From contig NC_087250.1 of assembly GCF_037042905.1 (NCBI RefSeq), forward strand, positions 24,120,001-24,184,000: DNA of 64,000 nucleotides, written 5' to 3'. Under the pieces are notes generated by a model, which did not search any database, was not told the origin of the DNA, and saw nothing but the letters and a program-made list of their open reading frames with translations. The DNA is from Lytechinus pictus. Its lineage: Eukaryota. Within the stretch, counting starts at the first letter, position 1; each line of letters starts with the position of its first letter. Positions 24,404 to 59,229 of the stretch are shown here, in pieces. A program made the position numbers and the translations under genes.

Positions 24404-25009
24404 CAGCAATGCAGACGAATATGGCGCCCTTGAGAAAGACTTCAGCAAGATATACAAAAGCTACTTACGCAAGTGGAGTGGTTTCGCACAGGACCTGATA
24501 CCTACGCTTCCCATAGAGCTCTTTGCATTCCTGGCCCACAGGGATAAGCACTTTGCAGTACTGTCATTTCTGAGATTCCGACAGGTTATACGTCTGATGC
24601 GTGTGTCACAATTTTTTGATAGATGGGAACAGGAACTTAATATCAAGTAAGTAATGAAAGATTCTGATTGTAAGATGTCTCATAAATGTAAAGTGGTCAC
24701 TTATTCTGGGTGGTGTTTTACGAGGAGTTAAATGTTACCTAGACCCCTGTTACACTGGATATCCTACCCAATACCAGTCTCAGGGCGCCCCGAGACTCGT
24801 TTTCAAAAAGTTGATCTAAATGTTTGACCCCCTATTACACCGGAATCATAACGAGTCTCGATGCCTCCCCCCCACTGAGACAGCTTTCTGTGCGTTTACA
24901 GTGACTTACCAAAGCTGTCCGAGATTAGTTGAGCAGGGCGCCAAGTGCGCGCTGTGTTTGTTTGGATAATCGTTCCAGGTGTAGCACATCAAGCGAAACT
25001 GTCTCTGAC

Positions 25010-32100: not shown

Positions 32101-32253
32101 GTCCAAAACAGAAGTCTGAGCACCTTCTTTCATGCAGGAATCTCGCAATTGCCCTTTCATCTCTAATCATCACACTTCATCACAAAGGTGCTTTGTGTGT
32201 TTTATACTGACTTTCTCACATTTCCTATTGTTTTTTTTTTTGTGGTGAATGTG

Positions 32254-35595: not shown

Positions 35596-36270
35596 TATGG
35601 GGCGCCAAGTGTCCGCCAGTGAATTAGGTCCAAATCACGGCATTCCGTACACAAAATGTGTTTTTATTCAGACGAAAATCATTTCGTCATGACGCTTTTT
35701 TATTTCGTACACAAAATTTATTTTTTGTCACACAAAATCAATTTCGTCTCGAAATGCACGAAATCAATTTCGTCTAGACGAAATGTAATTGCGTCCACAA
35801 AGTTTATTTGGCGTGCCATACGAAATGAATTTTTTTCAAACGAAATGGCGCACCAAATGTCCGATGGTAAATTCCGTCCAATTCACGCCATTCCGTACAC
35901 AAAATGTGTTTTTGTTCATATGAAAATCATTTCGTCATGACGCAGTTTTATTTCGTATACGAAATTATTTTTTGTCACACAAAATCAATTTTCGTCGAGA
36001 CTAAATGTAATTGCGTCCACAAAATTTATTTCGTTGCGATGCGAAAATCTATTCCGTCGACGAAATCATTTTGTGTCAAAACCACAAAAAAATTTCGTTG
36101 ACGAAATGATTTTGTGTCAAAACACAAAAAAATTTCGTCGACGAAATGATTTTGTGTCAAAACACAAAAAAATTTCGTCGACGAAATGATTTTGTGTCAA
36201 AAGACAAAAAAATTTCGTCGACGAAATGATTTTGTGTTTTGAGTCTTTTTGACATAAAATCATTTCGTCT
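35596..36270 (+). repeat. Subterminal repeat block: about 248-bp direct duplication of the terminus plus 40-bp tandem repeats; mirror at about 58525-59160
   Basis: cattccgtacacaaaatgtg at 35641 and 35889; acgaaatgat at 36101, 36141, 36181 and 36221; palindromic core TTTCGTCGACGAAA. Confidence 0.9.
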
Positions 36271-37388
36271 CCTCTGTCTCGAAGGGGACATAAGAAGGTC
36301 GCTGATTGGCTGCACCTTGCTCAAGCTGTTTTCGCTCCGGGACGATCACACTTTTTCACAGCTCAGATTGGCATGTTGGTGAACTTATTAGCTTAGATTT
36401 CACGTTATTCATGCCTACATGAGCTGCATACAACTGCTCTAATCGGTAGGATGTGGACGGACATTGCATTCGTAAGTTCAGCTATGTTTTCGACTTCAAA
36501 ATTACGTTGAAAAAAAAATGGGAATTCGTTAGTCGTTACCAAACTTGCATTTGCAAAAAGCTGTGTAACAATACTAGTCCCGTGTATTTAAGTTTATGTA
36601 CTGTAGTCAGCAGACCATTGGGGGGGGGGGGGTTTGTCTTTTCTGCACACCTAAAAAGTAAAATGGTTATGAATTATACAGGTTGAAGATATTTAGGCCT
36701 TGATCTTAATAAATAATGTAAAATTCATTCCGAGCAAAATGCTGAAAATTTCATTGAAATTGGATGACAACAAAAGTTATTGATGCCTGGCCGTACATGC
36801 CGTATGAAACTCTAACGTTAGGCTACTCCACTCAGTGACTCACGCGTATTGCGAGGTTAGTATTAGTATACTAACCTCGCACCATTAACCACGTTTGGCA
36901 ATGGATTTCTAACTAGTGGGTCACGCGTGCTGTGATCCCACTTCTGGTGTCCACAACACACAACCATCGCCTGCTGTACTAGTATAGTTGTGGTAGCCCT
37001 GGCCCCACTCATTACTAGTTCGAGGTTAGTGGCTACATATAGTTGCTACAGTACATGTATAGATCTATAGTACTAACCTCGTACACCGAACTGCATTTGG
37101 CCCTGGATTTCTGTGAAGTTGGCAAACATCGCTTCATTACAATACAGAATTAATATTTGCCGAAACTCCTCGCTACTCACCGGGGCGCTTTGCGGTGAGT
37201 AGCCATAATACAAAAAGTCAATAGTATATTTTTAATTAAATCAAAATCATATTTAAAAAAAAAGCAAATTTGATTACTTTGGAGTTTGGACTAGAAAGTG
37301 ACTTCGCGTGTCTCTTCTTTTTACGCAAATAAAAGGAAGCCAGATGGTGGCGCTAATAAATTTCACAGCCTTGATTCAGGCTCGCTTC

Positions 37389-39649
37389 AAATGCAGCTCC
37401 TCGGTAATTATGCCCCCGCAGACAAAGTCCGGAGGGGGCATTAAGCGTTGCCCCTGTCCGTTGATTCGCCCGCCCCCCCCACTTGGTTTCCGCGCAATAA
37501 ATCGAAATATATTTCGATTTATATATATTGATTAAAAAAATTTTGGTGTGTAGGTATGTGACACCATAGTACAGGCTAACTTTGAATTCGGAGTCTGCAG
37601 GTCCAAGGTCACAGCTCATGAAATATCCGAGTTGGTTTCCACATGATGACTTATGAAATATTCTACATATTTAAACGAATTTGAGTGTGTAGGTAGATGA
37701 CACCAAAATACAGGTTAAGTTCGAATTCGTAGTCGGCAGGTCAAAGGTCACGGCTCATTAAATATGCAATTTAGTTTCCACATGATTACTTTAAAAATAT
37801 TCTACATATTTAAACAAATTTGAGTGTGTAGGTAGATGATACCAATACAGGCTAAGTTCGAATTCGGAGTATGCAGGTCAAAGATCACAGCTCCTTAAAG
37901 ATATCTTATGAAATATGCAACAGATTTTTAAAAAATTTGGGTGTGTAGGTAGATGATGATGATGATGCACAGCATTTTTACAGCGGCGTAACAGGGTTCG
38001 GTGGCCAGGGGGGGGGGGGGGGCAAGAGCCAAAAATTTCCCGGTCATATCATGGTATGAAGAGGCGTAATGGTGTAATAAGGCGACTATTTTGAGAAATG
38101 CAGCTCCTTGGTAATTATGCCCCCGCAGACAAAGCCTGGAGGGGGCATTAAGCGTTGCCCCTGTCCGTTGATTCGCCCGCCCCCCCCACTTGGTTTCCGT
38201 GCAATAAATCGAAATATATTTTGATTTATATATATTGATTAAAAAAAATTTTGGTGTGTAGGTATGTGACACCATAGTACAGGCTAACTTTGAATTCGGA
38301 GTCTGCAGGTCCAAGGTCACAGCTCATGAAATATCCGACTTGGTTTCCACATGATGACTTATGAAATATTCTACATATTTAAACGAATTTGAGTGTGTAG
38401 GTAGATGACACCAAAATACAGGTTAAGTTCGAATTCGTAGTCGGCAGGTCAAAGGTCACGGCTCATTAAATATGCAATTTAGTTTCCACATGATTACTTT
38501 AAAAATATTCTACATATTTAAACAAATTTGAGTGTGTAGGTAGATGATACCAATACAGGCTAAGTTCGAATTCGGAGTATGCAGGTCAAAGATCACAGCT
38601 CCTTAAAGATATCTTATGAAATATGCAACAGATTTTAAAAAAATGTGGGTGTGTAGGTAGATGATGATGATGATGCACTGCATTTTTACAGCGGCGTAAC
38701 AGGGTTCGGTGGCCAGGGGGGGGGGGGGGGGGCAAGAGCCTAAAATTTCCCGGTCATATCATGGTATGAATAGGCGTAATGGTGTAATAAGGCGACTATT
38801 TTGAGAAATGCAGCTCCTTGGTAATTATGCCCCCGCAGACAAAGTCCGGAGGGGGCATTAAGCGTTGCCCCTGTCCGTTGATTCGCCCGCCCCCCCACTT
38901 GGTTTTCGCGCAATAAATCGAAATATATTTCGATTTATATATATTGATTAAAAAAAAAATTGGTGTGTAGGTACATGACACCATAGTACAGGCTAACTTT
39001 GAATTTGGAGTCTGCAGGTCCAAGGTCACAGCTCATGAAATATCCGAGTTGGTTTTCGCATGATGACTTATGAAATATTCAACAGATTTATAAAAATTAT
39101 GGTGTGTAGGTAGATGACACCAAATACAGGCTAAGTTCGGAGTCGGCAGGTCAAAGGTCACGGCTCATTAAATATGCAATTTAGTTTCCGCATGATTACT
39201 TATGAAATATTCTAAATATTTAAACGAATTTGAGTGTGTAGGTAGATGACACCAAAATACAGGTTAAGTTCGAATTCGTAGTCGGTAGGTCAAAGGTCAC
39301 GGCTCATTAAATATGCGATTTAGTTTCCGCATGATTACTTTAAAAATATTCTACATATCTAAACAAATTTGAGTGTGTAGGTAGATGATACCAATACAGG
39401 CTAAGTTCGAATTCGGAGTATGCAGGTCAAAGATCACAGCTCCTTAAAGATATCTTATGAAATATTCAACAGATTTTTAAAAAATTTGGGTGTGTAGGTA
39501 GATGATGATGTTGATGATGCACAGCATTTTTACAGCGGCGTAACAGGGTTCGGTGGCCAGGGGGGGGGGGAGGGCAAGAGCCAAAAATTTCCCGGTCATA
39601 TCATGGTATGAATAGGCGTAATGGTGTAGTAAGGCGACTATTTTGAGAA
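37389..39649 (+). repeat. Three tandem copies of a 707-844-bp unit with about 120-bp subrepeats; single copy in the right arm at about 56402-57244
   Basis: Unit start aaatgcagctcc at 37389, 38096 and 38806. Confidence 0.9.
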
Positions 39650-42599
39650 GGCCAGAACTTATCTTTAAAAAAAGTTGCGAGCGAGCGAAGCGAGCGAGCA
39701 ATTTTTTTTACCTTTTTAATACAAAAATCCAATTTTGTGATAGATTTTGACATGATATCCAGATAATAAATTTATTTAATTCTTCTCTCTTTAGATTCCT
39801 TTTTTGTCACGGTGGTCTGTACGCGCCACTGTGAAGAGGATTATTTGCGGCAGTAGCGTGAAGAGTAAAAAACAAAACAAAAAAACAACGAGGGGCGCAG
39901 TATAGAACATGTGCCAAAAGGCTGCTTTATATATATATATATATATATATAAGTCCTGAGCGAGCGAAGCGAGCGAGAAAAAAAATCAACTTTTCATGAG
40001 AATATAACTTTGAGCTATTTTTTAACATATTCAGTAATTAAAATCATATCCTACAATACTTTTCCAACAAAAAAGGAGGTAATTCCTCCTTTTTTTTTAA
40101 ATATTCCATTTTCAGTATCCAAATAGAGATGAAAATTATCCTATTTGGGAGGGTAACCATGGACCTGGGCCTTTACTGTGTATTTACAGTAAACTCTTAC
40201 TAAATGAACAAATATATAAAAAATTTGGTTTACCCTACATAATAATCCTGGGCTACTTTTAGATTGCATAGCCCGGGGGGGGGGGGAGGCTTTTTGGTCC
40301 CCCTCTTCAGATCTCCGTCGATCGCAACGAAAACCAATACACACGTCACCATCAATGTAATCTGCAAGCATGGAGCTAAGGGTGTATCGCTGATTTTACA
40401 GAATTTAAATTTATTTTTAATAAATTAATAATGCTAATTTATGCCTAAATATAGAATTCTCTGCTTTAAAGGTAAATCTCTAAATAATTCCCCAAATTCT
40501 ATGATTTCTAAACAAATGTGCTCCTGAAAAAAATGGTAAATCAAATTTCTAATCTTATGTATTTTATTGGTTTTATAATTCCATACGTATTTCTTAGTTT
40601 TGGGGCCTTATGTATTTTATTGGTTTTTTTCAATGGGATCACTTCGTGGTACTATTCCAATTATAAAAAGCAAAGATTTGATTATTTTCAACCAATCAGT
40701 GCAAGAATAATGATGCATTTGTCAATTATGACTGAAAACAGAATTTCCATTGGATTAAATATGTATACAAAATAAAATTTTTAGCAATTTTTGGTCCAAC
40801 ATAAGCTCATAAAATGTTGGGTAACTGCGTATCCGGGCGTCTCGAATTTGGTCTCAAAAGCTCTGCGAGAATTGAACGGGAAAAAAAATTGTGGTACCTC
40901 GTTTCTCATTGTGGACTTATCGTGAAAAATGTGGATAGGGGGGCTTATTAAGCCCCCCCCCCAGGGGCTAGATAGGGTTAATATATCATCATGAATATAC
41001 AAAAAAAATACATTTATTTTGTTGCAAGTCACTGGAAAAGGTTTGATTCCTAAATAAATATTATTCTTCATGTATTATCAAATATTTAATTGAAAAATTT
41101 TAAGCTATCTTTTCATTCGATGTATTAAGCGCTATATAAAAGCGGATTATTATTATTATTATTAGGTTTTATCATAATTTTACTTTTTGAAAATTATGCT
41201 ATTTTGTGACTAAGGCTACGTTTCATGTACTTTCCACCAATAGTATACGATATCAATGGATTCTAGTTAATCCTTTTGGGTAAGATTGGAACTAACTCTG
41301 TGTTTGGTAGATAAAGTTATATGACTAACTTGTCCAAGTGTTGAGAAACGGGCCCCTGCTGAGTACATGTAGGCCTAGAGTTTTTATGCCCCCACAGACG
41401 AAGCCCAGAGGGGGCATTAAGCATTGCCCCTGTCCGTCCCCCCCCCCCCACTTGGGTTTCCGCGCAATAACTCGAAAAATATTTAATGGATTTAAAAAAA
41501 ATTTTGGTGTGTAGGTAGATGACCACAAAATACAGGCTAAGTTCGAATTCGGAGTCCGCAGGTCAAAGGTCACATCTCATTATATATGCAAGTCGGTTCA
41601 AAGGTCTGAATTTGTTAATTATATATATATGCATATTGGTTTCTGTATGATATTAAGTTCAATCATATTGAATGGATTTCTGATCGCGTTAAGCAGGGGC
41701 ATCTGTGTCCTTTGGACACGTCAAATTTTCTTAATTATGTGTAATTGATTTTATGACATGTGTTTACATTTGCTGCAGATTCCCATTCAGCCGTTGGACT
41801 GAACCGGTACTGTAACACAGTATGGATGGTCAATATGAAGCGAGCTTCATTGAATTCTTCCAAGAGCTTTGTACTCCGTTTTGCTCATTTTGAAGATGGT
41901 AGCTTTGACAGGACTGGGCAAGTGACACGTCTTAGACAGGATGCTGTCCCAACCATATTTGATTTCCTGCCTCGTCTTCAGAAGGTAGAGTAGATCTATA
42001 TCATACATGTGTTCTAAAGAAATATTTTCTCTGTATTATCTACCTTTGGTTTGATAGAACATTGCTTTAAATATTCCATTTTCAGTAGCCAAATAGAGAT
42101 GAAAATTATCCTATTTGGGAGGCTAACCATGGACCTGGGCCTTTACTGTGTATTTACAGTAAACTCTTACTAAATGAACAAATATATTAAAAATTTGGTT
42201 TACCCTACATAATAATCCTGGGCTACTTTTAGATTGCATAGCCCGGGGGGGGGGGGGGGGGGGAGGCTTTTTGGTCCCCCTCTTCAGATCTCCGTCGATC
42301 GCAACGAAAACCAATACACACGTCACCATCAATGTAATCTGCAAGCATGGAGCTAAGGGTGTATCGCTGATTTTACAGAATTTAAATTTATTTTTAATAA
42401 ATTAATAATGCTAATTTATGCCTAAATATAGAATTCTCTGCTTTAAAGGTAAATCTCTAAATAATTCCCCAAATTCTATGATTTCTAAACAAATGTGCTC
42501 CTGAAAAAAATGGTAAATCAAATTTCTAATCTTATGTATTGGTTCTATAATTCCATACGTATTTCTTAGTTTTGGGGCCTTATGTATTTTATTGGTTTT

Positions 42600-43582
42600 T
42601 GTCTCGCCTGCATAGCAGAGCGAGACTATAGGCGCCGCTTTTCCGACGGCGGCGGCGGCGTCAACATCAAATCTTAACCTAAGGTTAAGTTTTTGAAATG
42701 ACATCATAACTTAGAAAGTGTATGGATCTAGTCCATGAAACTTGGACATAAGGTTAATCAAGTATTAGTGAACATCCTGCCTGAGTTTCAGGTCACATGA
42801 CCAAGGTCAAAGGTCATTTAGGGTCAATGAACTTTTGCCAAGTTGGGGGTATTTGTTGAATTACCATCATAACTTTGAAAATTTATGGATTTAGTTCATG
42901 AAACTTGGACATTAGGTTAATCAAGTACCACTGAATATCCTGTGCGAGTTTCAGGTCACATGACCATGGTGAATGGTCATTTAAGGTCAATGAACTTTGG
43001 CCGTGTTGGGGGTATATGTTAAATTACCATCCTAGCTCTGAAAGTTTATGGATCTAGTTCATAAAACTTGGACATAAGAGTAATCAAGTATCACTGAACA
43101 TCCTGTACGAGTTTCAGGTCACATGACCATGGTCAAAGGTCATTAAAGGTCAATGAACTTTGGCCGTGTTGGGGGTATTTGTTGAATTACCATCCTAACT
43201 ATGAAAGTTTATGGATCTAGTTCATAACACTTGGGATATAAGAGTAATCAAGCATCACTGAACATCCCCTGTGAGTTTCAGGTCACAAAACCAAGTCAAA
43301 GGTCAGTTAAGGTCAATAAACTTAGGCCATGTTGGGGTAATTGTTGAAGTGCCATCATAACTTTGAAAGTTTATGGATAGAGTGAATGAAATGTGGACAT
43401 GGGTGTAGTTGACAGTCTTAAGTCTCCGTTCAAATGTCATTTATGGTCAATGAACGTGGTATTATGTCATTATATGAATGATGTTTTTGTGAATGATTAT
43501 TTTATAGTAGTTTTCAAAGTTAGCACTGCTGCTATATTAAATTGCGTAATGCAGGCGAGACTGCCAGAGGCGTTCCACTTGT
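42600..43582 (+). mobile_element. Helentron/Helitron2-like element, same family as 5535-6171, left arm only
   Basis: TGTCTCGCCTGC...GCAGGCGAGAC...CACTTGT inserted in a T-run with no TSD; empty site tggtttttttcaatg at 40621; about 5 internal 128-bp repeats. Confidence 0.75.
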
Positions 43583-46500
43583 TTTTCAATGAGATCACTT
43601 CGTGGTACTATTCCAATTATAAAAAGCAAAGATTTTATTATTTTCAACCAATCAGTGCAAGAATAATGATGCCTCTGTCAATTATGACTGAAAATAGAAT
43701 TTCCATTGGATTAAATATGTATACAAAATAATATTTTTGAGCAGATATTATGGTATTGTAGATAATGCCATGGGTAACGCGCGTGCCAATTTTCGTCGCG
43801 ATTGCGAGATCAACGGCCGAGATCATAAGGGGGGCTGAATCAGCCCCCCCCCCCGTCTTCTTAGGCGTCGAAATAGCCCAGTCTATTTAGGGTTAAAGAT
43901 AAATCCCTAAATAATTCCCCAAATTCTATGATTTCTAAACAAATGTGCTCCTGAAGAAATGGTAAATCAAATTTCTACTTTTATGTATTTTATTGGTTCT
44001 ATAATTCCATACGTATTTCTTTGTTTTGGGGCCTTATGTATTTTATAGTTTTTTTTCAATGGGATCACTTCGTGGCACTATTCCAATTACAAAAAGCAAG
44101 ATTTGATTATTTCCAACCAATTAGTGCAAGAATAATGATGCATTTGTCAATTATGACTGAAAATAGAATTTCCATTGGATTAAATATGTATACAAAATAA
44201 TATTTTTGAGCAATTTTCGGTCCAACATGAACTCATAAAATGTTGCGTAACTGCGTATCTGGGCGTCTCGAATTTTGTCTAAAAGCTCTGCGAGAATTGA
44301 ACGAAAAAAAAAATTGTGGTACCTCGTTTCTCATTGTGGACTTATCGTGAAAAATGTGGATGGGGGGGGGGGGGGCTTATTAAGCTTATTAAGCCCCCCC
44401 CCCCGGGGCTAGATAGGGTTAATATATCATCATGAATATTAAAAAAAAAACATTTATTTTGTTGCAAGTCAATGGAAAAGGTTTGATTCCTAAATAAATA
44501 TTATTCTTCATGTATTATCGAATATTTAATTGAAAAATTTAAAGCTATCTTTTCATTCTTCTATCTGTTTTTGTTCAATATTTCTTATATGTTTCTTTTT
44601 TTTAATTCATTCATCTCGTACAGAGTTCATCCAAGCCAAGGAATTCCCCGAAAGAAAGACGTTTTGATTCAGCAAACAACCTCCCAGATACTGCAAAGTC
44701 TTCAGCACCTTCATTTCTCGAGGACCACTCCTACTCAATATCAGAAAGTCCAAGAGGGGTAAAGTGGAAGATAACAGCAATAATGGACTATTAAAAACTT
44801 GGAGAAGAGGCTGAAACCACACAGCAGAAGTCCCGCCGTGTACATTACTTGCTCTTAAGTTTGGACAAACATGACTCGCAAAACTTTACAACAAATAATT
44901 TACGCTATGTGCATTCTGATTATTTAAAATAGCTCAATGAAAAAGTTTACCACTGGGCATGTAACAAAAGTGCATTCATTAAATTTGAACGTGTTGCAAA
45001 AATGATGTCTTACAGTATATTCATTCTGACTTAGAATGTCAGAAGAGAAAAAAGTTTGTGAAAAGTAGGAATGACAGCAAGCTGACAGAAGAATAGAACA
45101 GGATAGAACAAGGCGATAGTTATGAATGAGCTGTTGGATAGAGACAAAAAGATGAATTAAGAATGGGGGTGATAGAGAAAGAGAGACGGGTGTTGGGGGA
45201 GCCTGTGATCAATGCCTGAGAAAGCGAAGATTACCATAATTTTTTTAAGGATTTGAACAGTCAGGAAAAATCTGGGTTTTTTTTTCTGTTGGTATTTCTC
45301 AAAATACTTGTATGTTTTATGTAACGAAACGGGTATAATCCTTCGGAAGTTTCACTCACACAGAAAATATTAACTAAACAAAAGAAAAAAAGCCAAATAA
45401 TTCACTGATTTTCAATTGTTCAGTAACTCTCATATCCAAAGTGCCCCCCCCATCATTTCAATGTATTGGAGAGAGAGTATGAACGGGACATGGCTGTCTG
45501 CAGAAAAAAAAAATACGGGGGGGGGGCAAAAATTTTTGGGGATATGTGCAAGGGAGCGAAGCGACAGCAGAAAATTATTTTGCAATATATGCGAGAGAGC
45601 GAAATGACAGAGAAGAAAAATGCAAGAGACAAGAGATTTGGGGAATATGTGAGAGGGAGCGAAGTGACCAAGCAGAAGAAATGTAGAGGACATAAAATTG
45701 TTGGGGTATGTGAGGGAGCAAAGCAACCGATAAAAAAAGCAGGTCAAAATATTTTTTGTGAATGATTATTTTATAGTAGTTTTCAAAGTTAGCACTGCTG
45801 CTATATTAAATTGCGTAATGCAGGCGAGACTGCCAGAGGCGTTCCACTTGTTTTTCAATGAGATCACTTCGTGGTACTATTCCAATTATAAAAAGCAAAG
45901 ATTTGATTATTTTCAACCAATCAGTGCAAGAATAATGATGCCTCTGTCAATTATGACTGAAAATAGAATTTCCATTGGATTAAATATGTATACAAAATAA
46001 TATTTTGGAGCAGATTTTGATATTATGGTATTGTAGATAATGCCATGGGTAACGCGCGTGCCAATTTTCGTCTCGATTGCGAGATCAACGGCCGAGATCA
46101 TAAGGGGGGCTGAATCAGCCCCCCCCCCCCCGAAATGAGCGAAATGACAGAGAAGAAAAATGCAAGGGACAAGAGATTTGGGGAATATGTGAAAGGGAGC
46201 GAAGTGACCAAGCAGAAGAAATGTAGAGGACATAAAATTGTTGGGGTATGTGAGGGAGCAAAGCAACCGATAAAAAAAGCAGGTCAAAATATTTTCGAAT
46301 ATGTGTGAGGAAGCGACTCGTTCACTCTTGAGCAGTAGGGACTTGTTTAAAAATAGCTTAAGAAATATGCGTTTTCTAAGCATGGTAAACACATATTGTA
46401 GGCCTACGGTAGAATTTAGGTGCTCTAAGAGTTAGATTCTGAATGAGCTGCATTTGCTGGTAAGACATGCGCAGAGGATCTTTGTCTTTCATCCATTTTC

Positions 46501-47080
46501 CACACTTTTCTTTTGATTTCAGTTTCCAGGCAGAAAGGCCCACCCTCCTGTGGAAGCCAATGGGGCAGGGGATTATATGCTTAAAATGCCAATTTTTCTG
46601 GTTGGAATATCAAACATTATCCTGAGCTTCGCGCTCATTTTAAAAATTATGTATAAACTATTAATGCTGATAAATACATTTAGATGTGCAGTGCTCTCTT
46701 GTAAAGCAGTTTTGTACTGAAGAGGCTACCCTGGGTAAATAAAACAGAATAAATGAATAAAGAAATAAATAAAAATGATGTTTCTAATCTCAGACTTTCT
46801 TATGCCCCTCGAAAGCTCACCCCTTCTTTGTTTCTCTTTTGATATCTAAAGTTCCGGTTTTTCCCTTTCTATCGTGCACTATTCTAAGCCCCAGCCCCAC
46901 TGGCTTCCACAGGAAGGGGGGGGGGGGGGGCTTCCCCTGAAAACTGAAATCCAACAAAAGAAATTTGAAAAATAAAAATGGATAAGAGACACAGATCCTT
47001 GCCGCATGTCTTACCAGCCAATACAGTTCATTCAGAATTTGACTCGTAAAACACCTAAATTCTACCGTAGGCCTATAATA

Positions 47081-48491
47081 GGTTTATTGCCATTTCGTCT
47101 ACTGCCATTTTGTCCACTCACCAAATGGTATGTCATTTCATCTACCATCAGTTGTTCCTTTTCCACATCTTCCAATTACCATTTTGTCCAATAGCTAGTT
47201 CGTCTAATAACCAATTTGTCTACTTTCATTTGGTCTAATTGTATTTTTGGCCAATTTGTCCAATAGCCACTTTGTCCATTTTCATTATGTCTATTACCAT
47301 TTAGTCCAATAGCCAATTGGTCTAAGGGCAAATGGCCACTGACCACTTAGTCTACTTACATTTTGTCTATGTTCCATTTTGTCCAACTGCAGTTGATCCA
47401 CTGTCACTTAGTCTAAACCCATTTCATCTAACAATCATTTGGTCTAATCATCAATGGGTCCAATTGCCATCCCGGTCAATATTCGTTTCGTCTACAATCA
47501 AATAGGAATAGTCTCCTACTAGCAGTCCTTCTAGTTTGGTGCCTGTGTATTGCTACCTCGACTCCTGTTGCTCTTGTGATTTGTTATTAATTTACACCTG
47601 TCGTTTGATTAATCTTTTATTAGTGTTTTTTTAAGCTCCATTGTAATACATTTTATGTTTTTATGTAATGTTCTCCCCATCCTTTCCCACTTTTCTCTCT
47701 TTTTAATTTTTTTTGTACCGTCCAAGGCTGTTATCGTTATTATTATAGTACATTTCTTGTTTATTAGTACTATCATTAATTACTATTATTACAATTATTA
47801 TCATTGTTATATGATGAGTGATGATTATCATTTTTAGGTGTGCATTTGTAAAAAAAAAGAAATGAGGGTAAATTCCAAATCAAAGGACCCTATTTCAATT
47901 TTATCAATTTTAACCACTCCAATTCCCCCTTTTGTGTGCGTGATGTGGTAGAGAGAGCGGGGGGGGGGGGGGGGGGGGTAGGAGGCTGCATGCTGTACCG
48001 CATCATTCCATTCCTGATAGCAGGCCTAGTTATATATTTTTTTATCTTCATGAATTTCAAGGTATATTTAAGAAGTCATTTCGTCCCCCCCCGGATGATG
48101 CATTATATTTGTATTAGACAACATGGCTATTGGACCAATTGGCTATTAGACTAAATGACTATTGGACGATTTGAGAATTGGACGAACTGGGCGATTTGGT
48201 TGTTAGACAAACTGATTATTGGACCTAATGGGTGGTGGACGAAATGATAGACGAAATGACAATTATCCGGTAGATAATTTGGATATTGGACCAACTGATA
48301 TTAGCCAACATGGCTTGGACTAAATGAACATTGGACGAACTGATTAATGGAGATGGCATTAGCCTTAATAGAATTAGACTAAATGGGTGGTAAACGAAAT
48401 TGCTATTGGACGAAATGGCATTTATAGACAAAATGAAGGTAGACCATGTGGTGAGTGGACTGTATGGCAGTAGACGAATTGGCAATTTACC
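47081..48491. mobile_element. About 1.4-kb long-TIR element (MULE/foldback-like) near the palindrome centre; terminus fragment also at about 22585-22617
   Basis: GGTTTATTGCCATTTCGTCTACTGCCAT / ATGGCAGTAGACGAATTGGCAATTTACC; arrays of short ttggtctaat-like repeats in mirror orientation; degenerate flanks ctataata/ttaaaata. Confidence 0.7.
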
Positions 48492-49758
48492 TTAAAATAT
48501 GGGTTTACCATTCTTAGAAAACGCATGTTTCCTAAAACAAGTCCCTACCGCTCGGGAGTGAATGTGTCGCTCCCTCGCACATATTCCAAAATATTTTGAC
48601 TGACCCTGGGTAAATAAAATAAACAATTACAAAAACGAAAATGTTGTTTTTAATCTGAGACTTTTTAATGCCCCTCGAAAGTTCACCTGCTTTCTCACTC
48701 TCCCCCTCTCTATCTTTGTTTTTATTCATTTTCATTTTACAATTCTTTCTTTCTCTTTTGATATCTATAAAGTTCAGATTCACCCTCTCTAACTTGCACT
48801 ATTCCAAGCCCCCGCCCCATTGGTATCCACAGGAATGGGGGGAGGAGGGGCTTACCCCCTGGAAAATAAATTCAAACAAAAGAAAAATGTGAAAATAAAA
48901 ATGGATAAAGACAAATAATCCTCTGCGCATGTCTAACCAGCCAATACAGTTCATTCAGAATTTAACTCTTACAACACCTAAATTCTACCATATTATCAGT
49001 TTACCATGATTATAGAAAACGCATATTTCCTATGCCATTTTTAAACAAGTCCCTATCGCTCGGGAGTGAACGTGTCGCGCACCAGCACAAATTCGAAAAA
49101 TATTTTGATTGACCTGCTTTCTGGTTTTTTTTATCGGATGCTTTGCTCCCTCACACATACCACAATTTTTGTCCCTCTTTCCTTTTACTTCTGCTTGGTC
49201 ACTTTGCTCCCTCTCACATATTCTCGAAATATTTTGGCCCCTGCATTTGTTCTTCTCGTCACTTTGCTCTCTCACATATATCCCCAGAATAATTTTTCTG
49301 CTCGGTCGCTTCGCTCCCTTGAACATATCCTAAAAATGTTTTGCTCCCCCTGCATTTTTTTCTGCAGACAGCCAATCCATTTCTCATCCAACCTCTCTCT
49401 CTCTCCAATACCTTGAAATGAGGGGGGGGGGGGGTACTTTTGATATGAGAGTGTCTGAACAGTTGAAAATAAGTAAAATATAATTTGGCTTTTTTGTTTG
49501 TTTAGTTAATATTTTCTGAATGAGTGTATCTTACAAAAGAATTATACCCATTTCATTACATACAACATACACATATTTTGAGAAATACCAACAGAAAAAA
49601 CATGTACTATTCATTACTGTCCAAATCCTCAAAAAAAAATTATGGTAATGTTCGCTTTCTCAGGCATTCATCAAAGGCTCCCCCACACCTGTCTCTCTTT
49701 CTCTATCACCCTCAATCTCAATTCATCTTTTTGTCTCTATCCAACAGCTCATTAGTAA

Positions 49759-50358
49759 AGGTCAAGTTTACCCAAGAAAATTGTTGGTTCAGTTAAATTG
49801 AGAAAAATCAAACTAGCATAACGCTGAAAATTTCATCAAAATGGGATGTAAACTAAGAAAGTTATGGCATTTTAAATTTTCACTTATTTTTCACAAAACA
49901 AAAATATTTACAACTCAGTGACATGCAAATGAGACAGTCGATAATGTCCCTCACTCACTGTTTATTTTGTTTTTTATTGTTTGAATTATACAATATTTCA
50001 TTTTTTACAGATTTTACCATAAGGACAAACTTTACTGAACCAAAAAAGTATTGAATAATGCTAATTCCACATGATCAGGGAGGAATAAAATTTTGTTTAA
50101 CATGACAAGGAGAAAATTAGAATATACCTTATTCTATATATCAAATGAAATAGTGAGTGGATGACGTCATCAGTCTCCTCATTTGCATACTGACTGTGTA
50201 CAGAATGTGCATATAACTCTTTTGTAAAATTTAGCAAAATTTTTAAATGTCATAACTTTCTTATTTTACATCCGATTTTTTATCAAATTTTCAGTGTTAT
50301 GCTTGTTGGATTTTTCTCTTTTTATTCATATCAACAATTTTTGGGGTGGACTTGTCCT
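49759..50358. mobile_element. Kolobok-like MITE, same family as 10247-10852, right arm only
   Basis: AGGTCAAGTTTACCC...GGGGTGGACTTGTCCT termini; absent at the mirror site near 45120. Confidence 0.7.
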
Positions 50359-51069
50359 TTATCTGTCCCCCTTGCTCTATCCTGTTCTATTCTTCTGTCA
50401 TCTTGCCGTCATTCCTACTTTTCACAAACTTTTTTCTCTTCTGACATTCTAAGTCAGAATGAATATACTGTAAGACATCATTTTTGCAACACGTTCAAAT
50501 TTAATGAATTCACTTTTGTTACATGCCCACTGATAAACTATTTCATTGAGCTATTTTAAATAATCAGAATGCACATTGGGGTAATTATTTGTTGTAAAGT
50601 TTTGCAAGTTATGTTTGTCCAAACTTAAGAGCAAGTAATGTACACGGCGGGACTTCTCGTGTGTGGTTTTCAGCCTCTTCTCCAAGTTCTTAATACAGTC
50701 CATTATTGCTGTTATCTTCCACTTTACCTCTCTTGGACTTTGTGATATTGAGTAGGAGTGGTCCTCGAGAAATGAAGGTGCTGAAGACTTTGCAGTATCT
50801 GGGAGGTTGTTTGCTGAATCAAAACGTCTTTCTTTCGGGGAATTCCTTGGCTTGGGTGAATTCTGTACGAGATGAATGAATTAAAAAAAAGAAACATATA
50901 AGAAATATTGAACAAAAACAGATAGAAGAATGAAAAGATAGCTTTAAATTTTTCAATTAAATATTTGATAATACATGAAGAATAATATTTATTTAGGAAT
51001 CAAAACCTTTTCCAGTGACTTGCAACAAAATAAATGTTTTTTTTTTTAATATTCATGATGATATATTAA

Positions 51070-52425
51070 CCCTATCTAGCCCCGGGGGGGGGGGGCTTAA
51101 TAAGCCCCCCCCCCATCCACATTTTTCACGATAAGTCCACAATGAGAAACGAGGTACCACAATTTTCTTTTTCGTTCAATTCTCGCAGAGCTTTTAGACA
51201 AAATTCGAGACGCCCAGATACGCAGTTACGCAACATTTTATGAGTTCATGTTGGACCGAAAATTGCTCAAAAATATTATTTTGTATACATATTTAATCCA
51301 ATGGAAATTCTATTTTCAGTCATAATTGACAAATGCATCATTATTCTTGCACTAATTGGTTGGAAATAATCAAATCTTGCTTTTTATAATTGGAATAGTG
51401 CCACGAAGTGATCCCATTAAAAAAAAACTATAAAATACATAAGGCCCCAAAACAAAGAAATACGTATGGAATTATAGAACCAATAAAATACATAAAAGTA
51501 GCAATTTGATTTACCATTTCTTCAGGAGCACATTTGTTTAGAAATCATAGAATTTGGGGAATTATTAAGGGATTTATCTTTAACCCTAAATAGACTGGGC
51601 TATTTCGACGCCTAAGAAGACGGGGGGGGGGGGGGGGGCTGATTCAGCCCCCCTTATGATCTTGGCCGTTGATCTCGCAATCGCGACGAAAATTGGCACG
51701 CGCGTTACCCATGGCATTATCTACAATACCATAATATCAAAATCTGCGAAAAATCTCATTGCTCATTATGTTAATTAATGCGTAAAATCATAAGTTTGCT
51801 CTAATTAACAAAATAATGCCCCTAAAATGCTCATTTTTGTTTCACTTACTCTTTATAGGCATCTGATTAAATTAATTTTTAAAAAAGTTGTCAACATCAC
51901 ATTCATTTTTTATGTATTTTATTGTTTTCTAAATTTCTTATGTATTTCCGTGTTTTTCGACTTTTTGTTTTTTATTGTTTTTTCAATGGAAATTGTCGGA
52001 GACGTTTTTTTTTACCATAAACAAGATAAAATTAATTGATTTTGAGCAGTAAAAGGAAAAATATGATACATTTTATAAATTTTGGCTAAAAACACTACTT
52101 GCATTGGATTTGTACACAAATACACGTTTTTGAGCAATTTTGGTTCTGCATGCAGTTACGAAATGTTGCGTAATTTCGGAACCCTGTACCTGGGGGTCAC
52201 AATTTTGGTCTCAAAAGTTGCGCAAGACTTGAAAGTAAAAAGTCAACGAGTGACGCGGTCAAAAAAATGTCGAGCTCCATGCTTGCAGATTACATTGATG
52301 GTGACGTGTGCATCGGTTTTCGTTGCGATCGACAGTGCATGGAGATCTGAAGAGGGGGACCAAAAAGGCCCCCCCCCCCGGGCTATGCAATCTCAAAGTA
52401 GCCCAGGATTATTATGTAGGGTAAA
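51070..52425. mobile_element. Two nested/fused piggyBac-like MITEs (A from 51070, B from 51584); rearranged mirror pieces in the left arm at 40230-40977 and 42200-44418
   Basis: TTAA|CCCTATCTAGCCC at 51066 and TTAA|CCCTAAATAGACTGGGC at 51580; similar to 12147-12921. Confidence 0.65.
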
Positions 52426-52939
52426 CCAAATTTTTAATATATTTGTTTATTTAGTAAGAGTTTACTGTAAATACACAGTATAGGCCCAGGTCCATGGTTA
52501 CCCTCCCAAATAGGATAATTTTAATCTCTATTTGGCTACTGAAAATGGAATATTTAAAGCAATGTTCTATCAAACCAAAGGTAGATAATACAGAGAAAAT
52601 ATTTCTTTAGAACACATGTATGATATAGATCTACTGTACCTTCTGAAGACGAGGCAGGAAATCAAACATGGTTGGGACAGCATCCTGTCTAAGACGAGTC
52701 ACTTGCCCAGTCCTGTCAAAGCAACCATCTTCAAAATGGTCAGAACGGAGTACAGAGCTCTTGGAGGAATTCAATGAAGCTCGCTTCATATTGACCATCC
52801 ATACTGTGTTACAGACAGTACAGGTTCAGTCCAACGGCTGAATGGGAATCTGCAGCAAATGTAAACACATGTCATAAAATCAATTACACATAATTAAGAA
52901 AATTTGACTTGTCCAAAGGACACAGATGCCCCCGCTTAA

Positions 52940-53536
52940 AGGGGAATCCAACCCAAATAAAAAATTGTTTTTATAAGGAAAAGAAAAATCAGACAAGTTG
53001 ATAGGTGAAAGTTTGAACAATATTGGACAAACAACAAGAAAGTTATGAATTTTTAAAAGTTGTAAATATTGGTAATCACTGTACCCATGGAGACCTCAAA
53101 TTGGCTGCATATGGGATGTCATAGTGATGTAAGGCAAGGACTACTCTTCCATGTACTCCAATTCATATTATGGCGAAAATGTGATTTTTTCCCAAAAGTT
53201 TTATTTCAAATTAATATTTTTCTTTCATGAGGACATAAAACAATATACTACCTGGGTTATATTTAGATTACTGCCCCAGGGGAATGGGTACTTAGGAGAA
53301 AACCACTAATCCCTGATAATAAAGTACATGGCCTATGGGAAAGTTGTCCTTGCCCCTTGTCATAATTTACTTATCCAGTTGCCAATTTGAAATCTACATA
53401 GTATTAGTGATCTCAATTTTAAAGCAGCTATAACTTTCTTATTGCTTGTCTGATTTCTTTCAAACTTTCACCATTCTGTTTAATTTATTTTTCTCCTTCC
53501 CAACACAGCATTTAATGGCCAAGGCTGGATTCCCCT
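52940..53536. mobile_element. Kolobok-like MITE, 597 bp, right arm only
   Basis: TTAA|AGGGGAATCCA...TGGATTCCCCT|TTAA; empty site cgcgTTAAgcag at about 41689 in the left arm. Confidence 0.85.
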
Positions 53537-54889
53537 TTAACGCGATCAGAAATCCATTCAATATGATTGAACTTAATATCATGCAGAAACCAATATGCAT
53601 ATATATAATTAATTAACAAATTTAGACCTTTGAACCGACTTGCATATATAATGAGATGTGACCTTTGACCTGCGTACACCGAATTCGAACTTAGCCTGTA
53701 TTTTGTGGTCATCTACCTACACACCAAAATTTTTTAAAATCCATTAAATATTTTTCGAGTTATTGCGCAGAAACCAAGTGGGGGGACGGACAGGGGCAAC
53801 GCTTACTGCCCCTTCCGGGCTTCGTCTGCTGGGGCATAAAAACTCTAGGCCTACTCAGCAGGGGCCCATTTCTCATTACCTGGACAAGTTAGTCATATAT
53901 CTTTATCTATTAAACACAGAGTTAGTTCCAATCTTACCCAAAAGGATTAACTAGAATCCATTGATATCGTCATATTGATACTATTGGTGGAACAAAAATA
54001 GCATAATTTTCAAAAAGTAAAATTATGATAAAACTTACAATTATTGTGATGAATTTGGAAATACATACTATCAAAATAATAGCAGAGGCGAAATATGCAT
54101 AAAACATACTCAAACATGCAGACATGGGCATTAAATTGCTGATAAAATGAAATTATCAGTAATTCATTTCATGACAAAAAAAAATCACATGTATGTGGAC
54201 ATTGAGATGGGTATCCCCAGATATAAAATTTGAATAGTTTAAGTAAACCATACAGGCTTTCTTCCTAAAATGATGATAATTATACAGGTTTTTAGGATTC
54301 CAAACACCATCAAAATATTATCATCATGAATAAACTCTTTAGATACCGAAACACACGATTTTATAAATTCTATGCGTATATTAGAGAGAGAAGGGTCTGA
54401 AAGCGACGAGTACGAGTCCAATTATGGATGGCCTGAAGTGGTAGAATCTTTGTCAATTCAATTATTTTACTACTTTAAAATGAATGGTTTTGTGATGTTT
54501 TACCAACACTTGTTATAATTCTGTGCATTACAATTACTATTGAATGATTTATCCCACTTGTGTACAATATAATTCATTTTCTATGAATTATTATGTAATA
54601 TTATAATTTTCGAATTTCGAGGCTCATTTGCATGTATTATGGTGTCATCTATCTAAACACCCAATTTTTAAAAAATCTGTTGAAATTTTATAAGTTATTA
54701 TGAGGATACCAACTCGCATATTTAATGACCCTGTGTAGTGGTCCACCTGCATTCCCCCAACCAGTTATCGGGAGGAGAGACCTGCGGGTCACAGTTCTGT
54801 GTGCGCGCCCTTGTAGGCGACCCAGATTGGCTGGCTCCTCCAATATGCCTTTGAATGTCTTTGACAGATATATGGTGCTATAAAAATGC

Positions 54890-55780
54890 AGTGGCGTAAC
54901 AGGCGGGGGGCAGGGGGGGGGGGGCAAGTTACCCCCCCTGGCGGATTTCACCGGGAAAATTAAAAAACAACGGGAAAAAGAAAAAAAGGAGGGAGAAAGA
55001 AAGGGAAAGGGGAAGGAAAGGGGAAAGAAAAGGAGGAAAGGGAAATGGAAAGAGAAAAGGAAAAAGACAACGAAGAAAAAACTGTTTTTAGTAAAAAAGG
55101 GAGGAAAGCGGGAAAATGTACGATAGAATTAACATTTGAAAAAGAACAAATCATTGAGAAAAGGGCCTATGTAATGCAATAGCACGGTGGGAAATAAATT
55201 AAAAGATGACAAAATGGCAAACAATAGCGGGAAACGAAGGTAGAATGTAATTAGTCAAGAGCTAAATTAGAAAACAAAGAAAAGGAACAAGAAAAAAAAT
55301 AACACGACCGGGCTGCTGATGATTGAAATTAAAGAGCGGGAAGAAAGATGGACTGCATACAACATTGTGCTATAAGTTTTCTAAATTTTATGCAAATAAG
55401 CTACCGGGGCTTTGCCCCAGACCCCACAAAGTAGGGGCTCTTCATTTATAATCTTCAAATGGCTCTATAACGCCCCCGTTCAATCACGTTCAATCACTGC
55501 CATACAGGCGGGGGGGGGGGGGGGGGGGGTCGTGGTTCCACACCCAAGAGGATATAAAAGAAATTTTATAGGAGACAACGTACATGACGTATAATGAAAT
55601 GAATAAAAACAAGGAAATGTGTTATTTGCTGATAATAATGGAAAAATCTATCACATAATTAGATTTTAATTTCAATAGGCAATTTTTTCCAGCTCGCTTT
55701 GCACACTGGCGACTTTTTACAAATTTTTCCCACATTTCTATGTTTTGCCCCCTCAAAATATTTGGTTCATTACGCAACTG
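54890..55780. mobile_element. hAT-like MITE remnant(s) with a purine-rich tract
   Basis: CAGTGGCGTAA...TTACGCAACTG termini; no matching TSD seen. Confidence 0.4.
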
Positions 55781-58700
55781 GGTTGAATAAATGTGTTGTG
55801 TAAAAGCTATATTATGCCCGCGATTTGATTAAAATTGGGGAAATCTGCAAGGTTTAAATGGCTTTGATATCAAGAAGTTCCTGGGGCTCTGCCCTGGACC
55901 CCAAACACACAGCACTGCGTATGGAAGGGTTGGGCCATGGCCCCAAAAAGTTCTACAGCCAAGAACAAAAAAAAAGGAGGAATTACCTCCTTTTTTGTTG
56001 GAAAAGTATTGTAGGATATGATTTTAATTACTGAATATGTTAAAAAATAGCTCAAAGTTAGATTCTCATGACAAGTTGATTTTTTTTCTCGCTTGCTTCG
56101 CTCGCTCAGGACTTATATATATAAAGCAGCCTTTTGGCACATGTTCTATACTGCGCTCCTCGTTGTTTTTTTGTTTTGTTTTTTACTCTTCACGCTACTG
56201 CCGCAAAGAATCCTCTTCACAGTGGCGTACAGACCACCGTGACAAAAAAGGAATCTAAAGAGAGAAGAATTAAATAAATTTATTATCTGGATATCATGTC
56301 AAAATCTATCACAAAATTGGATTTTTGTATTAAAAAGGTATTAAAAAAATTGCTCGCTCGCTTCGCTCGCTCGCAACTTTTTTTAAAGGTAAGTTCTGGC
56401 CTTCTCAAAATAGTCGCCTTACTACACCATTACGCCTATATTCATACCATGATATGACCGGGAAATTTTTGGCTCTTGCCCCCCCCCCCCTGGCCACCGA
56501 ACCCTGTTACGCCGCTGTAAAAATGCTGTGCATCATCATCATCTACCTACACACCCAAATTTTTTAAAAATCTGTTGAATATTTCATAAGATATCTTTAA
56601 GGAGCTGTGATCTTTGACCTGCATACTCCGAATTCGAACTTAGCCTGTATTGGTATCATCTACCTACACACTCAAATTTGTTTAAATATGTAGAATATTT
56701 TATAAGTAATCATGCGGAAACTAAATTGCATATTTAATGAGCCGTGAACTTTGACCTGCCGACTACGAATTCGAACTTGACCTGTATTTTGGTGTCGTCT
56801 ACCTACACACTCAAATTCGTTTAAATATGTAGAATATTTCATAAGTAATCATGCGGAAACTAAATTGCATATTTAATGAGCCGTGACCTTTGACCTGCCG
56901 ACTCCGAACTTAGCCTGTATATGGTGTCATCTACCTACACACCCTAATTTTTATAAATCTGTTGAATATTTCATAAGTCATCATGCGGAAACCAACTCGG
57001 ATATTTCATGAGCTGTGACCTTGGACCTGCAGACTCCGAATTCAAAGTTAGCCTGTACTATGGTGTCATGTACCTACACACCAATTTTTTTTAAAATCAA
57101 TATATATAAATCGAAATATATTTCGATTTATTGCGCGGAAACCAATTGGGGGGGGGGGGGCGGGCGAATCAACGGACAGGGGCAACGCTTAATGCCCCCT
57201 CCGGACTTTGTCTGCGGGGGCATAATTACCGAGGAGCTGCATTTGAAGCGAGCCTGAATCAAGGCTGTGAAATTTATTAGCGCCACCATCAGGCTTCCTT
57301 TTATTTGCGTAAAAAGAAGAGACACGCAAAGTCACTTTCTAGTCCAAACTCCAAAGTAATCAAATTTGCTTTTTTTTAAATATGATTTTGATTTAGGCCT
57401 AATTAAAAATATACTATTGACTTTTTGTATTATGGCTACTCACCGCAAAGCGCCCCGGTGAGTAGCGAGGAGTTTCGGCAAATATTAATTCTGTATTGTA
57501 ATGAAGCGATGTTTGCCAACTTCACAGAAATCCAGGGCCAAATGCAGTTCGGTGTACGAGGTTAGTACTATAGATCCATACATGTACTGTAGCAACTATA
57601 TGTAGCCACTAACCTCGAACTAGTAATGAGTGGGGCCAGGGCTACGACAACTATACTAGTACAGCAGGCGATGGTTCGTGTAAGCTCCACTACACTTCAC
57701 TACTGCTAACCTCTGCTTCACCTATACTGATTAATGGCTGGCTATACGAACCATTGCCTGAGTTTTTTAGGCCTAGTCACTCAAGGGTTCATTACATGCC
57801 GCCGCGCACAGAAAAATCAAGCAATAGAAGTTGTGTGTTGTGGACACCAGAAGTGGGATCACAGCACGCGTGACCCACTAGTTAGAAATCCATTGCCAAA
57901 CGTGGTTAATGGTGCGAGGTTATTATACTAATACTAACCTCGCAATACGCGTGAGTCACTGAGTGGAGTAGCCTAACGTTAGAGTTTCATACGGCATGTA
58001 CGGCCAGGCATCAATAACTTTTGTTGTCATCCAATTTCAATGAAATTTTCAGCATTTTGCTCGGAATGAATTTTACATTATTTATTAAGATCAAGGCCTA
58101 AATATCTTCAACCTGTATAATTCATAACCATTTTACTTTTTAGGTGTGCAGAAAAGACAAACCCCCCCCCCCCAATGGTCTGCTGACTACAGTACATAAA
58201 CTTAAATACACGGGACTAGTATTGTTACACAGCTTTTTGCAAATGCAAGTTTGGTAACGACTAACGAATTCCCATTTTTTTTTCAACGTAATTTTGAAGT
58301 CGAAAACATAGCTGAACTTACGAATGCAATGTCCGTCCACATCCTACCGATTAGAGCAGTTGTATGCAGCTCATGTAGGCATGAATAACGTGAAATCTAA
58401 GCTAATAAGTTCACCAACATGCCAATCTGAGCTGTGAAAAAGTGTGATCGTCCCGGAGCGAAAACAGCTTGAGCAAGGTGCAGCCAATCAGCGACCTTCT
58501 TATGTCCCCTTCGAGACAGAGGAGACGAAATGATTTTATGTCAAAAAGACTCAAAACACAAAATCATTTCGTCGACGAAATTTTTTTGTCTTTTGACACA
58601 AAATCATTTCGTCGACGAAATTTTTTTGTGTTTTGACACAAAATCATTTCGTCAACGAAATTTTTTTGTGGTTTTGACACAAAATGATTTCGTCGACGGA

Positions 58701-59166
58701 ATAGATTTTCGCATCGCAACGAAATAAATTTTGTGGACGCAATTACATTTAGTCTCGACGAAAATTGATTTTGTGTGACAAAAAATAATTTCGTATACGA
58801 AATAAAACTGCGTCATGACGAAATGATTTTCATATGAACAAAAACACATTTTGTGTACGGAATGGCGTGAATTGGACGGAATTTACCATCGGACATTTGG
58901 TGTGCCATTTCGTTTGATAACAATTCATTTCGTATGGCACGCCAAATAAACTTTGTGGACGCAATTACATTTCGTATAGACGAAATTGATTTCGTGCATT
59001 TCGTCGAGACGAAATTGATTTTGTGAGACAAAAAATAAATTTTGTGTACGAAATAAAAAAGCGTCATGACGAAATGATTTTCGTCTGAATAAAAACACAT
59101 TTTGTGTACGGAATGCCGTGATTTGGACGGAATTCACTGGCGGACACTTGGCGCCCCATACTTTAC

Positions 59167-59229
59167 GGTGACTACGCCAACAGTGTCAATGCCCAGGAGA
59201 TCTTCCCTGCCAAGCAAACTGAAGTCTAA
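59167..59229 (+). pseudogene. CNGK: Displaced remainder of the duplicate terminal exon (GDYANSVNAQEIFPAKQTEV*)
   Basis: Identical to 13589-13651; resumes immediately after the right TSD. Confidence 0.92.

Follow-up and report, generated by a model that had tools for sequence, protein, structure and literature searches.

A 23.6-kb patchwork palindrome with IS3EU/GingerRoot-type ends inserted into a truncated CNGK gene copy of Lytechinus pictus

Introduction

The P element makes target site duplications (TSDs) of 8 bp and ends in CA..TG, and foldback transposons of the FB, TU and Mutator types make TSDs of 8–10 bp; the TU elements of sea urchins are foldbacks. In the accessible portions of the publications cited in this text, most foldbacks are placed with Mutator (PMC4079207), and extension of the terminal inverted repeats (TIRs) of Galileo by repair on the opposite end is proposed (PMC3573991). 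Mention is also made of Teratorn, with long inverted repeats in its interior, and of composites bounded by FB elements (PMC6431247). Complete IS3EU families are described as always having TA..TA termini and usually 6-bp TSDs, with GingerRoot alike (Kojima and Bao, PMC10045372), and fungal IS3EU elements as ending in TAYGG..CCRTA with a 6-bp TSD (PMC12730594). For GingerRoot, TA..TA termini are given for 72 of 77 elements, with TIRs of 100–150 bp, lengths of 3.9–12.9 kb and frequent gene fragments; Polinton ends start with AG (PMC6839031). Here we describe a 23,565-bp element (positions 35596–59160, termini TATGG..CCATA) inserted whole in a window of 64,000 nucleotides of Lytechinus pictus DNA (contig NC_087250.1, 24,120,001 to 24,184,000), the window being the entire stretch analysed. 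With a probability of roughly 0.7, we read it as a young insertion of a multi-copy Lytechinus transposon with IS3EU/GingerRoot-type ends, likely moved in trans by an IS3EU transposase, whose arms are likely alike through conversion from the tips inward.

Results

The element entered as a single unit

The hexamer CTTTAC flanks the element on both sides (Table 1) and occurs once, between the same neighbours, at the empty site in the upstream copy of the host gene. Because the empty site fixes it, the TSD length is exactly 6 bp; the chance of the 6-mer recurring at the second flank is ~3e-4, given the local composition. The TSD, the 30-bp TIR and the empty site together show that the 23,565 bp arrived as one unit. 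A preliminary description of this DNA had reported a perfect 6-bp TSD, a 30-bp TIR, an intact empty site and this length, all of which are exact, and its proposal of entry as one unit is borne out by the TSD and the empty site. The 225 bases of the target exon before the insertion are all identical to the uninterrupted copy (225/225), and the flanks of the two host gene copies are 1.3–4.0% divergent. We therefore conclude that the insertion is young, as had been proposed; the palindrome itself is old and heavily edited.

The left end departs from the right end at 35626–35628. We compared contigs from 4 of 15 runs (X1, X3, X12 and X13) with positions 33600–50400, a stretch that ends before the right junction. 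All X12 and X13 contigs carry the right-end letters at 35626–35627, and the left-end variant thus seems private to this copy.

The terminal signature is of IS3EU/GingerRoot type

The termini are TA..TA and agree with the fungal TAYGG..CCRTA, the TSD is 6 bp, and the TIR, expected to be at least 30 bp in IS3EU and GingerRoot, is perfect over 30 bp and continues for 1.37 kb at 0.6% substitutions. We scanned with Pfam the 137 stop-to-stop open reading frames (ORFs) of at least 55 aa in the element; shorter exons lie outside the scan. Transposase or integrase domains, including the DDE transposase of autonomous IS3EU/GingerRoot elements, were found in 0/137 ORFs, in agreement with the earlier remark that no transposase ORF is visible. 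Judged by its end signature, the element would be a non-autonomous relative of IS3EU/GingerRoot, presumably mobilized in trans by an enzyme made elsewhere.

In its structure (long modular inverted arms, a short non-coding middle, no transposase among the ORFs scanned) the element falls into the foldback class. The earlier comparison with FB and Galileo holds for this shape, but not for the ends and the TSD: 6 bp differs from the 8–10 bp of FB/TU/Mutator-type foldbacks and from the 7–8 bp of the P superfamily and Galileo, and TA..TA from the CA..TG of the P superfamily. A gutted Polinton/Maverick, its ends homogenized by single-strand fold-back replication, would share the 6-bp TSD and the long TIRs, and panhandle copying could produce the tip-inward gradient of divergence described below. 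The termini, however, do not begin with AG as Polinton ends do (PMC6839031), and the same ORFs gave no Pfam match to polymerase (polymerase B included), integrase or capsid, which makes such an origin very improbable. The weak Pfam matches DruA and DUF2659 fell below the cut-off and were dismissed.

Within its outer 700 bp, each end has a second, decayed terminus and an 8-mer at more than 40 per kb, compared with fewer than 2 inside; in the left zone, the GACGAAAT-like motif reaches 41 per kb versus 1.9 per kb inside. These arrays are likely to be binding sites of the putative transposase. A search of the whole element with the 20-nt terminal motif, allowing up to 5 mismatches, found 4 sites, none of them more than 260 bp from an end, and no inner terminus. 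An exact scan of metagenome contigs for the terminal 20-mer gave 0 matches.

The arms form a patchwork palindrome with strata of divergence

Inverted homology runs inward from both ends to a spacer of 309 bp, close to the ~300 bp given in the preliminary description. The claim that the element is almost entirely one palindrome overstated its extent: paired blocks set by hand place 13,609 bases (58% of the element) in register. Of the 23,565 bases, 12,864 lie in the best colinear BLAST chain and 18,510 (79%) in any inverted match; the spacer, insertions specific to one arm and duplications make up ~10.1 kb. The element is a patchwork of two inverted arms, not a clean palindrome. An axis near 47,700, indicated by the colinear chain, was rejected; it corresponds to the inverted ends of the nested element at 47080–48492, and the palindrome turns at the spacer named in the preliminary description.

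In nine blocks from tip to centre, the substitution divergence between the arms was 0.6, 0.9, 1.9, 4.1, 2.9, 2.1, 9.8, 11.9 and 12.0%, a gradient absent from the preliminary description. Pooled into three strata, it was 0.69, 2.42 and 10.84% (Fisher P=3e-6 for outer/middle and 3e-29 for middle/inner), the last figure (129/1,190) counting one left stretch against two right copies. The step from <1 to 2% sits at the left-only triplication, and that from 2 to 10% exactly at the right-only MITE (miniature inverted-repeat transposable element) at 49757–50361. The inner blocks are in register across this MITE and not high-copy in the run data, and are therefore part of the palindrome. In the outermost block, 7 of 8 mismatches fall in the first 400 bp; the following ~840 bp (35996–36836), which include a dead exon, have none. 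Selection is thus an unlikely cause of the gradient.

Six protein models of L. pictus represent the gene carried in the arms (see below), 3 of them right-type and 3 left-type or partly so. A marker of two residues, located where exon 3 starts, is present on left and right backgrounds, in all four combinations (P0008, P0002, P0001 and P0009). The strata and the marker mixing together point to an ancient inverted duplication in which conversion, with heterologies acting as barriers, would have re-copied the outer arms. We dropped the mosaic model P0006 as evidence for conversion, because the right-type residues in it are shared with L. variegatus and could be the ancestral state.

A similar gradient might arise by exchange among dispersed copies, or by fusion of two opposite copies whose inner ends were then deleted. 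Many copies would be available as recombination partners, left and right types persist as separate lineages across copies, and the divergence of the middle stratum is what ordinarily separates sequences within the species here. Yet the element lacks an inner terminus, its two sides are the same half meeting at the short spacer, and ~840 bp are free of mismatches; moreover, a single late fusion would not account for inner arms that are so much older than the outer ones. We regard this origin as unlikely and favour conversion between the arms, proceeding from the tips.

Left and right types recur at other Lytechinus loci

In L. pictus, we found 6 distinct models under 7 accessions. P0008, with two accessions, is the translation of the left arm in the window, and one of the element's exons matches a Lytechinus pictus model at 100% identity. 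P0002 (left-type) and P0001 (right-type) differ from the window arms and bear consecutive numbers (XP_054775545.1/546.1); this numbering suggests that they are adjacent and form another left/right pair. In L. variegatus, the 30 of 39 cluster members listed comprise at least 21 distinct LOC ids, which lie on sequences of 11 different lengths. The loci of clusters P0003, P0004 and P0005 (at least 21) are annotated as 'THAP domain' or uncharacterized, many with several isoforms; they are likely cargo of this element family and possibly transcribed. Identical L. variegatus proteins whose accession runs are neighbours (XP_041454058/065) may stem from both arms of a single copy.

Contigs of X1, X12 and X13, from three samples and two studies, matched left-only, right-only and central pieces with 0–3 differences (for example, 45046–45375, 47423–47831, 48507–48822 and 49413–49749; X1 records 5–8, X12 record 15, X13 records 21 and 23). 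In X1, all element bins were covered and the first host bin was almost empty (0.15). Contig depth was 86–90 at the terminus versus 2–3 in the host flank (X12/X13) and ~1,300–2,200 over the THAP exons versus ~19 (X3), values that are suggestive only, depth not being copy number. Among the best-supported loose contig ends none lay at 35596, which counts neither for nor against the insertion. Taken together, the protein models and the run contigs support a multi-copy Lytechinus element. This agrees, as do its length and the lack of a transposase among the ORFs, with the earlier proposal of a very large, non-autonomous, foldback-shaped transposon.

Palindromes and adjacent near-duplicates are general hazards of assembly, and no long read was seen across the junctions, so a fold-back chimera or a one-off rearrangement has to be weighed. 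The arms, however, are up to 12% divergent and are set apart by whole insertions, the TSD is exact, arm-specific pieces were recovered in independent samples, and left and right gene types exist at other loci; we give this possibility hardly any weight and retain a mobile, multi-copy element.

Each arm carries a broken THAP gene

An inward-pointing, broken three-exon THAP gene, missed in the preliminary description, lies in each arm. Exon 2 encodes the THAP core, and exon 3 a DHSY motif and a coiled-coil-like stretch; the only 2 of the 137 ORFs above the Pfam cut-off were both THAP. As the three exons are spread through each arm, much of the arm consists of repeat-filled introns. Left-arm exon 1 resembles the N-terminus of P0037, a hagfish protein of 1052 aa (source name 'neuroblastoma breakpoint family-like') with a THAP domain and ~11 tandem DHSY/coiled-coil modules. 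With exon 3, a word-index search retained 0 of 22 candidates and a full HMMER search gave 5 matches. One, weak (E=5e-4), was to P0040, an unnamed protein with Pfam Tnp_P_element and the P-transposase helix-turn-helix (HTH); further distant relatives were THAP-only host-type proteins of hagfish and pipefish. In appearance, the cargo is a captured gene fragment, the 5' portion of a P/THAP9-type gene, and it is broken in both arms.

The THAP gene might instead be the stump of the element's own transposase, in a derivative of Galileo or the P superfamily with TIRs lengthened as in Galileo. THAP, DHSY and coiled coil do stand in P/THAP9-type order, exon 3 matches P0040, and Galileo TIRs are long and repetitive (PMC3573991). 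The TSD of exactly 6 bp, as opposed to 7 bp in Galileo, does not fit (same source). Nor do the TA..TA ends, the absence of a P HTH or catalytic remnant after exon 3 among the ORFs scanned with Pfam, or the host-type character of the other relatives. This derivation appears improbable, and we prefer a captured gene within IS3EU/GingerRoot-type ends.

The host is a truncated duplicate of CNGK

The host gene is CNGK, the sperm channel, a tetrameric potassium channel gated by cyclic nucleotide monophosphates. Its last exon matches residues 2148–2242 of the Arbacia protein at 81%. The interrupted copy starts mid-exon at 24404 and covers only about residues 1835–2242, thus lacking about four fifths of CNGK. 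The insertion lies 20 codons upstream of the stop, and the element adds 8 codons and a stop. The L. pictus model P0043 is 100% identical to the host exon over 79% of its length and ends exactly in the 8 element-derived residues, an agreement that is not independent because the model probably comes from the same assembly. The preliminary description saw the element caught inserting into a coding exon. This is true of the sequence; however, it missed that the target exon belongs to a 5'-truncated duplicate, of which only the last 20 codons were displaced, and for this reason the insertion was probably harmless.

The duplicated 3' fifth begins just after a decayed stretch at 23528–24441, labelled by eye as like a long interspersed nuclear element, which gave no Pfam match. 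Up to 35595, the coding parts of the truncated copy (from 24404) are nearly intact; among the changes are HR in place of QG in the first exon and, immediately after the GYGD pore motif, V in place of A. The two CNGK copies may be a true tandem or segmental duplication, or else two alleles that the assembly placed in series.

Other arm-specific DNA

The left arm holds a triplicated 708-bp unit and a very high-copy repeat at 42596–43580, which we take to be Helitron/Helentron-like. The nested 1.4-kb element of the right arm is non-coding, with inverted arrays of 16-bp repeats and TAAT/TAAA flanks. In X3, from another organism (~90% identity), one contig bridges the inner right arm and this nested element (46863–47213); their junction is therefore old. 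High-copy palindromic MITEs, presumably Kolobok- or piggyBac-like and some with TTAA duplications, occur in the window at 10242–10857, 31045–31656, 49757–50361, 52940–53536 and 1094–1396. An Rfam scan of the element gave 0 matches.

Table 1. Coordinates of the element, its parts and its host gene in the window
Feature	Position	Strand	Remarks
Left TSD	35590..35595	+	CTTTAC
Right TSD	59161..59166	+	CTTTAC
Empty site	13583..13588	+	CTTTAC once, upstream CNGK copy
Whole element	35596..59160	.	23,565 bp, ends TATGG..CCATA
Left TIR	35596..35625	+	30 bp, perfect
Right TIR	59131..59160	-	30 bp, perfect
Left subterminal zone	35596..36300	+	Decayed second terminus copy at 35844, 40-bp tandem array
Right subterminal zone	58500..59160	-	Mirror of left
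Left arm	35596..46575	+	10,980 bp
Right arm	46885..59160	-	12,276 bp
Central spacer	46576..46884	.	309 bp, no inner terminus
Outer stratum	35596..37388		12/1,751 aligned bases differ (0.7%)
Middle stratum	38806..45113		91/3,765 differ (2.4%)
Inner stratum	45125..46575		109/1,024 (10.6%); 129/1,190 with second right-arm copy
THAP exon 1, left arm	36411..36471	+	In-frame stops, splice sites by eye
THAP exon 2, left arm	41779..41984	+	Pfam THAP 1.4e-5 (above cut-off)
THAP exon 3, left arm	44624..44794	+	DHSY motif, frame stops early
THAP exon 1, right arm	58322..58382	-	Stops same as left
THAP exon 2, right arm	52640..52849	-	Pfam THAP 4e-7
THAP exon 3, right arm	50551..50862	-	DHSY and coiled-coil-like stretch
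Left-only	37389..38805	+	Two extra copies of 708-bp unit with 139-bp repeats
Left-only	40096..41162	+	Copy of more internal sequence (42066–42603 and 43893–44558)
Left-only	42596..43580	+	Very high-copy repeat, 163-bp tandem units
Right-only	47080..48492	.	Nested 1.4-kb element, own inverted ends AGG..CCT
Right-only	48603..49114	+	Old tandem copy (78–84%) of innermost right-arm unit and part of spacer
Right-only	49757..50361	.	High-copy MITE, 81% like 10242–10857
Right-only	51739..52272	.	534-bp segment
Right-only	52940..53536	.	MITE, TTAA duplication, AGGGG..CCCCT ends
Right-only	54038..55966	.	1.9-kb segment
Right-only	57682..57829	.	148-bp segment
Host gene copy	24404..64000	+	5'-truncated direct duplicate of 4051–18422+ (fourth repeat of CNGK); last exon split 35595/59167

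Discussion

The present structure might have arisen as follows. An IS3EU-type end would have come to lie upstream of a THAP/DHSY/coiled-coil gene with introns, which was probably a P/THAP9-type gene's 5' part. Long ago, as the inner 1.4 kb with its ~11% divergence would date it, an inverted duplicate of this half may have taken the place of the other half, along with any transposase, when one side was repaired on the opposite one, a mechanism proposed for Galileo. Each arm then gathered nested repeats and duplications of its own, as the arm-specific segments document. Each outer arm would have been re-copied repeatedly, with the other arm or a sister copy as the template, and conversion tracts would have stopped at large arm-specific insertions; the strata and the marker mixing argue for this step. 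As both ends and the subterminal motif arrays are intact, the 23.6 kb still inserts whole with a 6-bp duplication, presumably through an IS3EU-type enzyme.

Several points speak against this account. The IS3EU assignment is based on 5 terminal bases and the TSD length, and the cargo resembles, weakly (E=5e-4), the start of P-type transposases. The Galileo model predicts that inward sequence is newer and more alike, the reverse of our observation, so the re-copying step is needed in addition. The 2.4% of the middle stratum equals the 1.3–4.0% between the host copies, and exchange among dispersed copies, as opposed to exchange inside one element, may account for it. The marker test was made on predicted proteins and not on DNA, and the mosaic P0006 is equally explained by ancestral states. 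Contig depth does not equal copy number, and among the 32 of ~144,800 pieces listed no contig crossed the outer junctions or the full spacer.

If the account is true, cut-and-paste transposition in an animal germline can still move a 23.6-kb palindrome in one piece, and the little-studied IS3EU superfamily is able to yield foldbacks. Many replicate palindromes would then be at hand for measuring how fast and in which direction the arms convert each other, and what stops them. For annotation, ~20 or more Lytechinus 'THAP domain protein' models are likely transposon cargo, and the last residues of a 408-aa 'CNG channel-like' model are transposon-derived. More tentatively, the element may represent a mobile giant-palindrome family with arms of 11–12 kb that have survived since before the split of the two Lytechinus species, corrected from the tip inward with each cycle of transposition or repair. 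It would then carry dated strata, comparable to those of sex-chromosome palindromes, in dozens of independent and movable replicates, and its two inward promoters could give multi-kilobase hairpin RNA.

The literature covered by our search, in the portions accessible, describes neither this family nor such an element with TIRs >2 kb; Repbase, supplements and most subscription journals lay outside it, as did the IS3EU supplementary family tables, which may hold long-TIR members. The arms are ~7 times longer than the longest TIRs given there, those of Galileo (1.3 kb) and Tetris (1.7 kb), and consist mostly of non-tandem, gene-derived DNA.

Among known systems, Galileo copies with two TIRs are similar in being non-autonomous, made almost wholly of TIR and lengthened by unique internal sequence, and recombination and conversion have been proposed for them too. 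Galileo differs in its longest TIR (1,260 bp), its 7-bp TSD and its superfamily, and tip-to-centre strata do not figure in the accessible text of that report (PMC3573991). The foldback class (Tetris, FB, sea-urchin TU) shares long modular arms, a small non-coding middle and the lack of a transposase; the TIRs of Tetris, however, reach up to 1,735 bp and are built on tandem repeats, unlike the mostly non-tandem, gene-derived arms described here (PMC4079207). Animal Pack-TIRs such as Ssk-FB4 likewise amplify an intron-containing gene within a TIR element, whereas here the cargo is present twice, inverted, inside the TIR and broken (PMC8277862). With IS3EU and GingerRoot, the element shares the 6-bp TSD, the TA..TA termini (TATGG..CCATA, similar to TAYGG..CCRTA) and the occurrence of non-autonomous copies that carry gene fragments (PMC10045372, PMC12730594, PMC6839031). 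It departs from the accessible description of GingerRoot, with TIRs of 100–150 bp in elements of 3.9–12.9 kb, by its arms of 11–12 kb, its length of 23.6 kb and its 309-bp middle without a detectable transposase.

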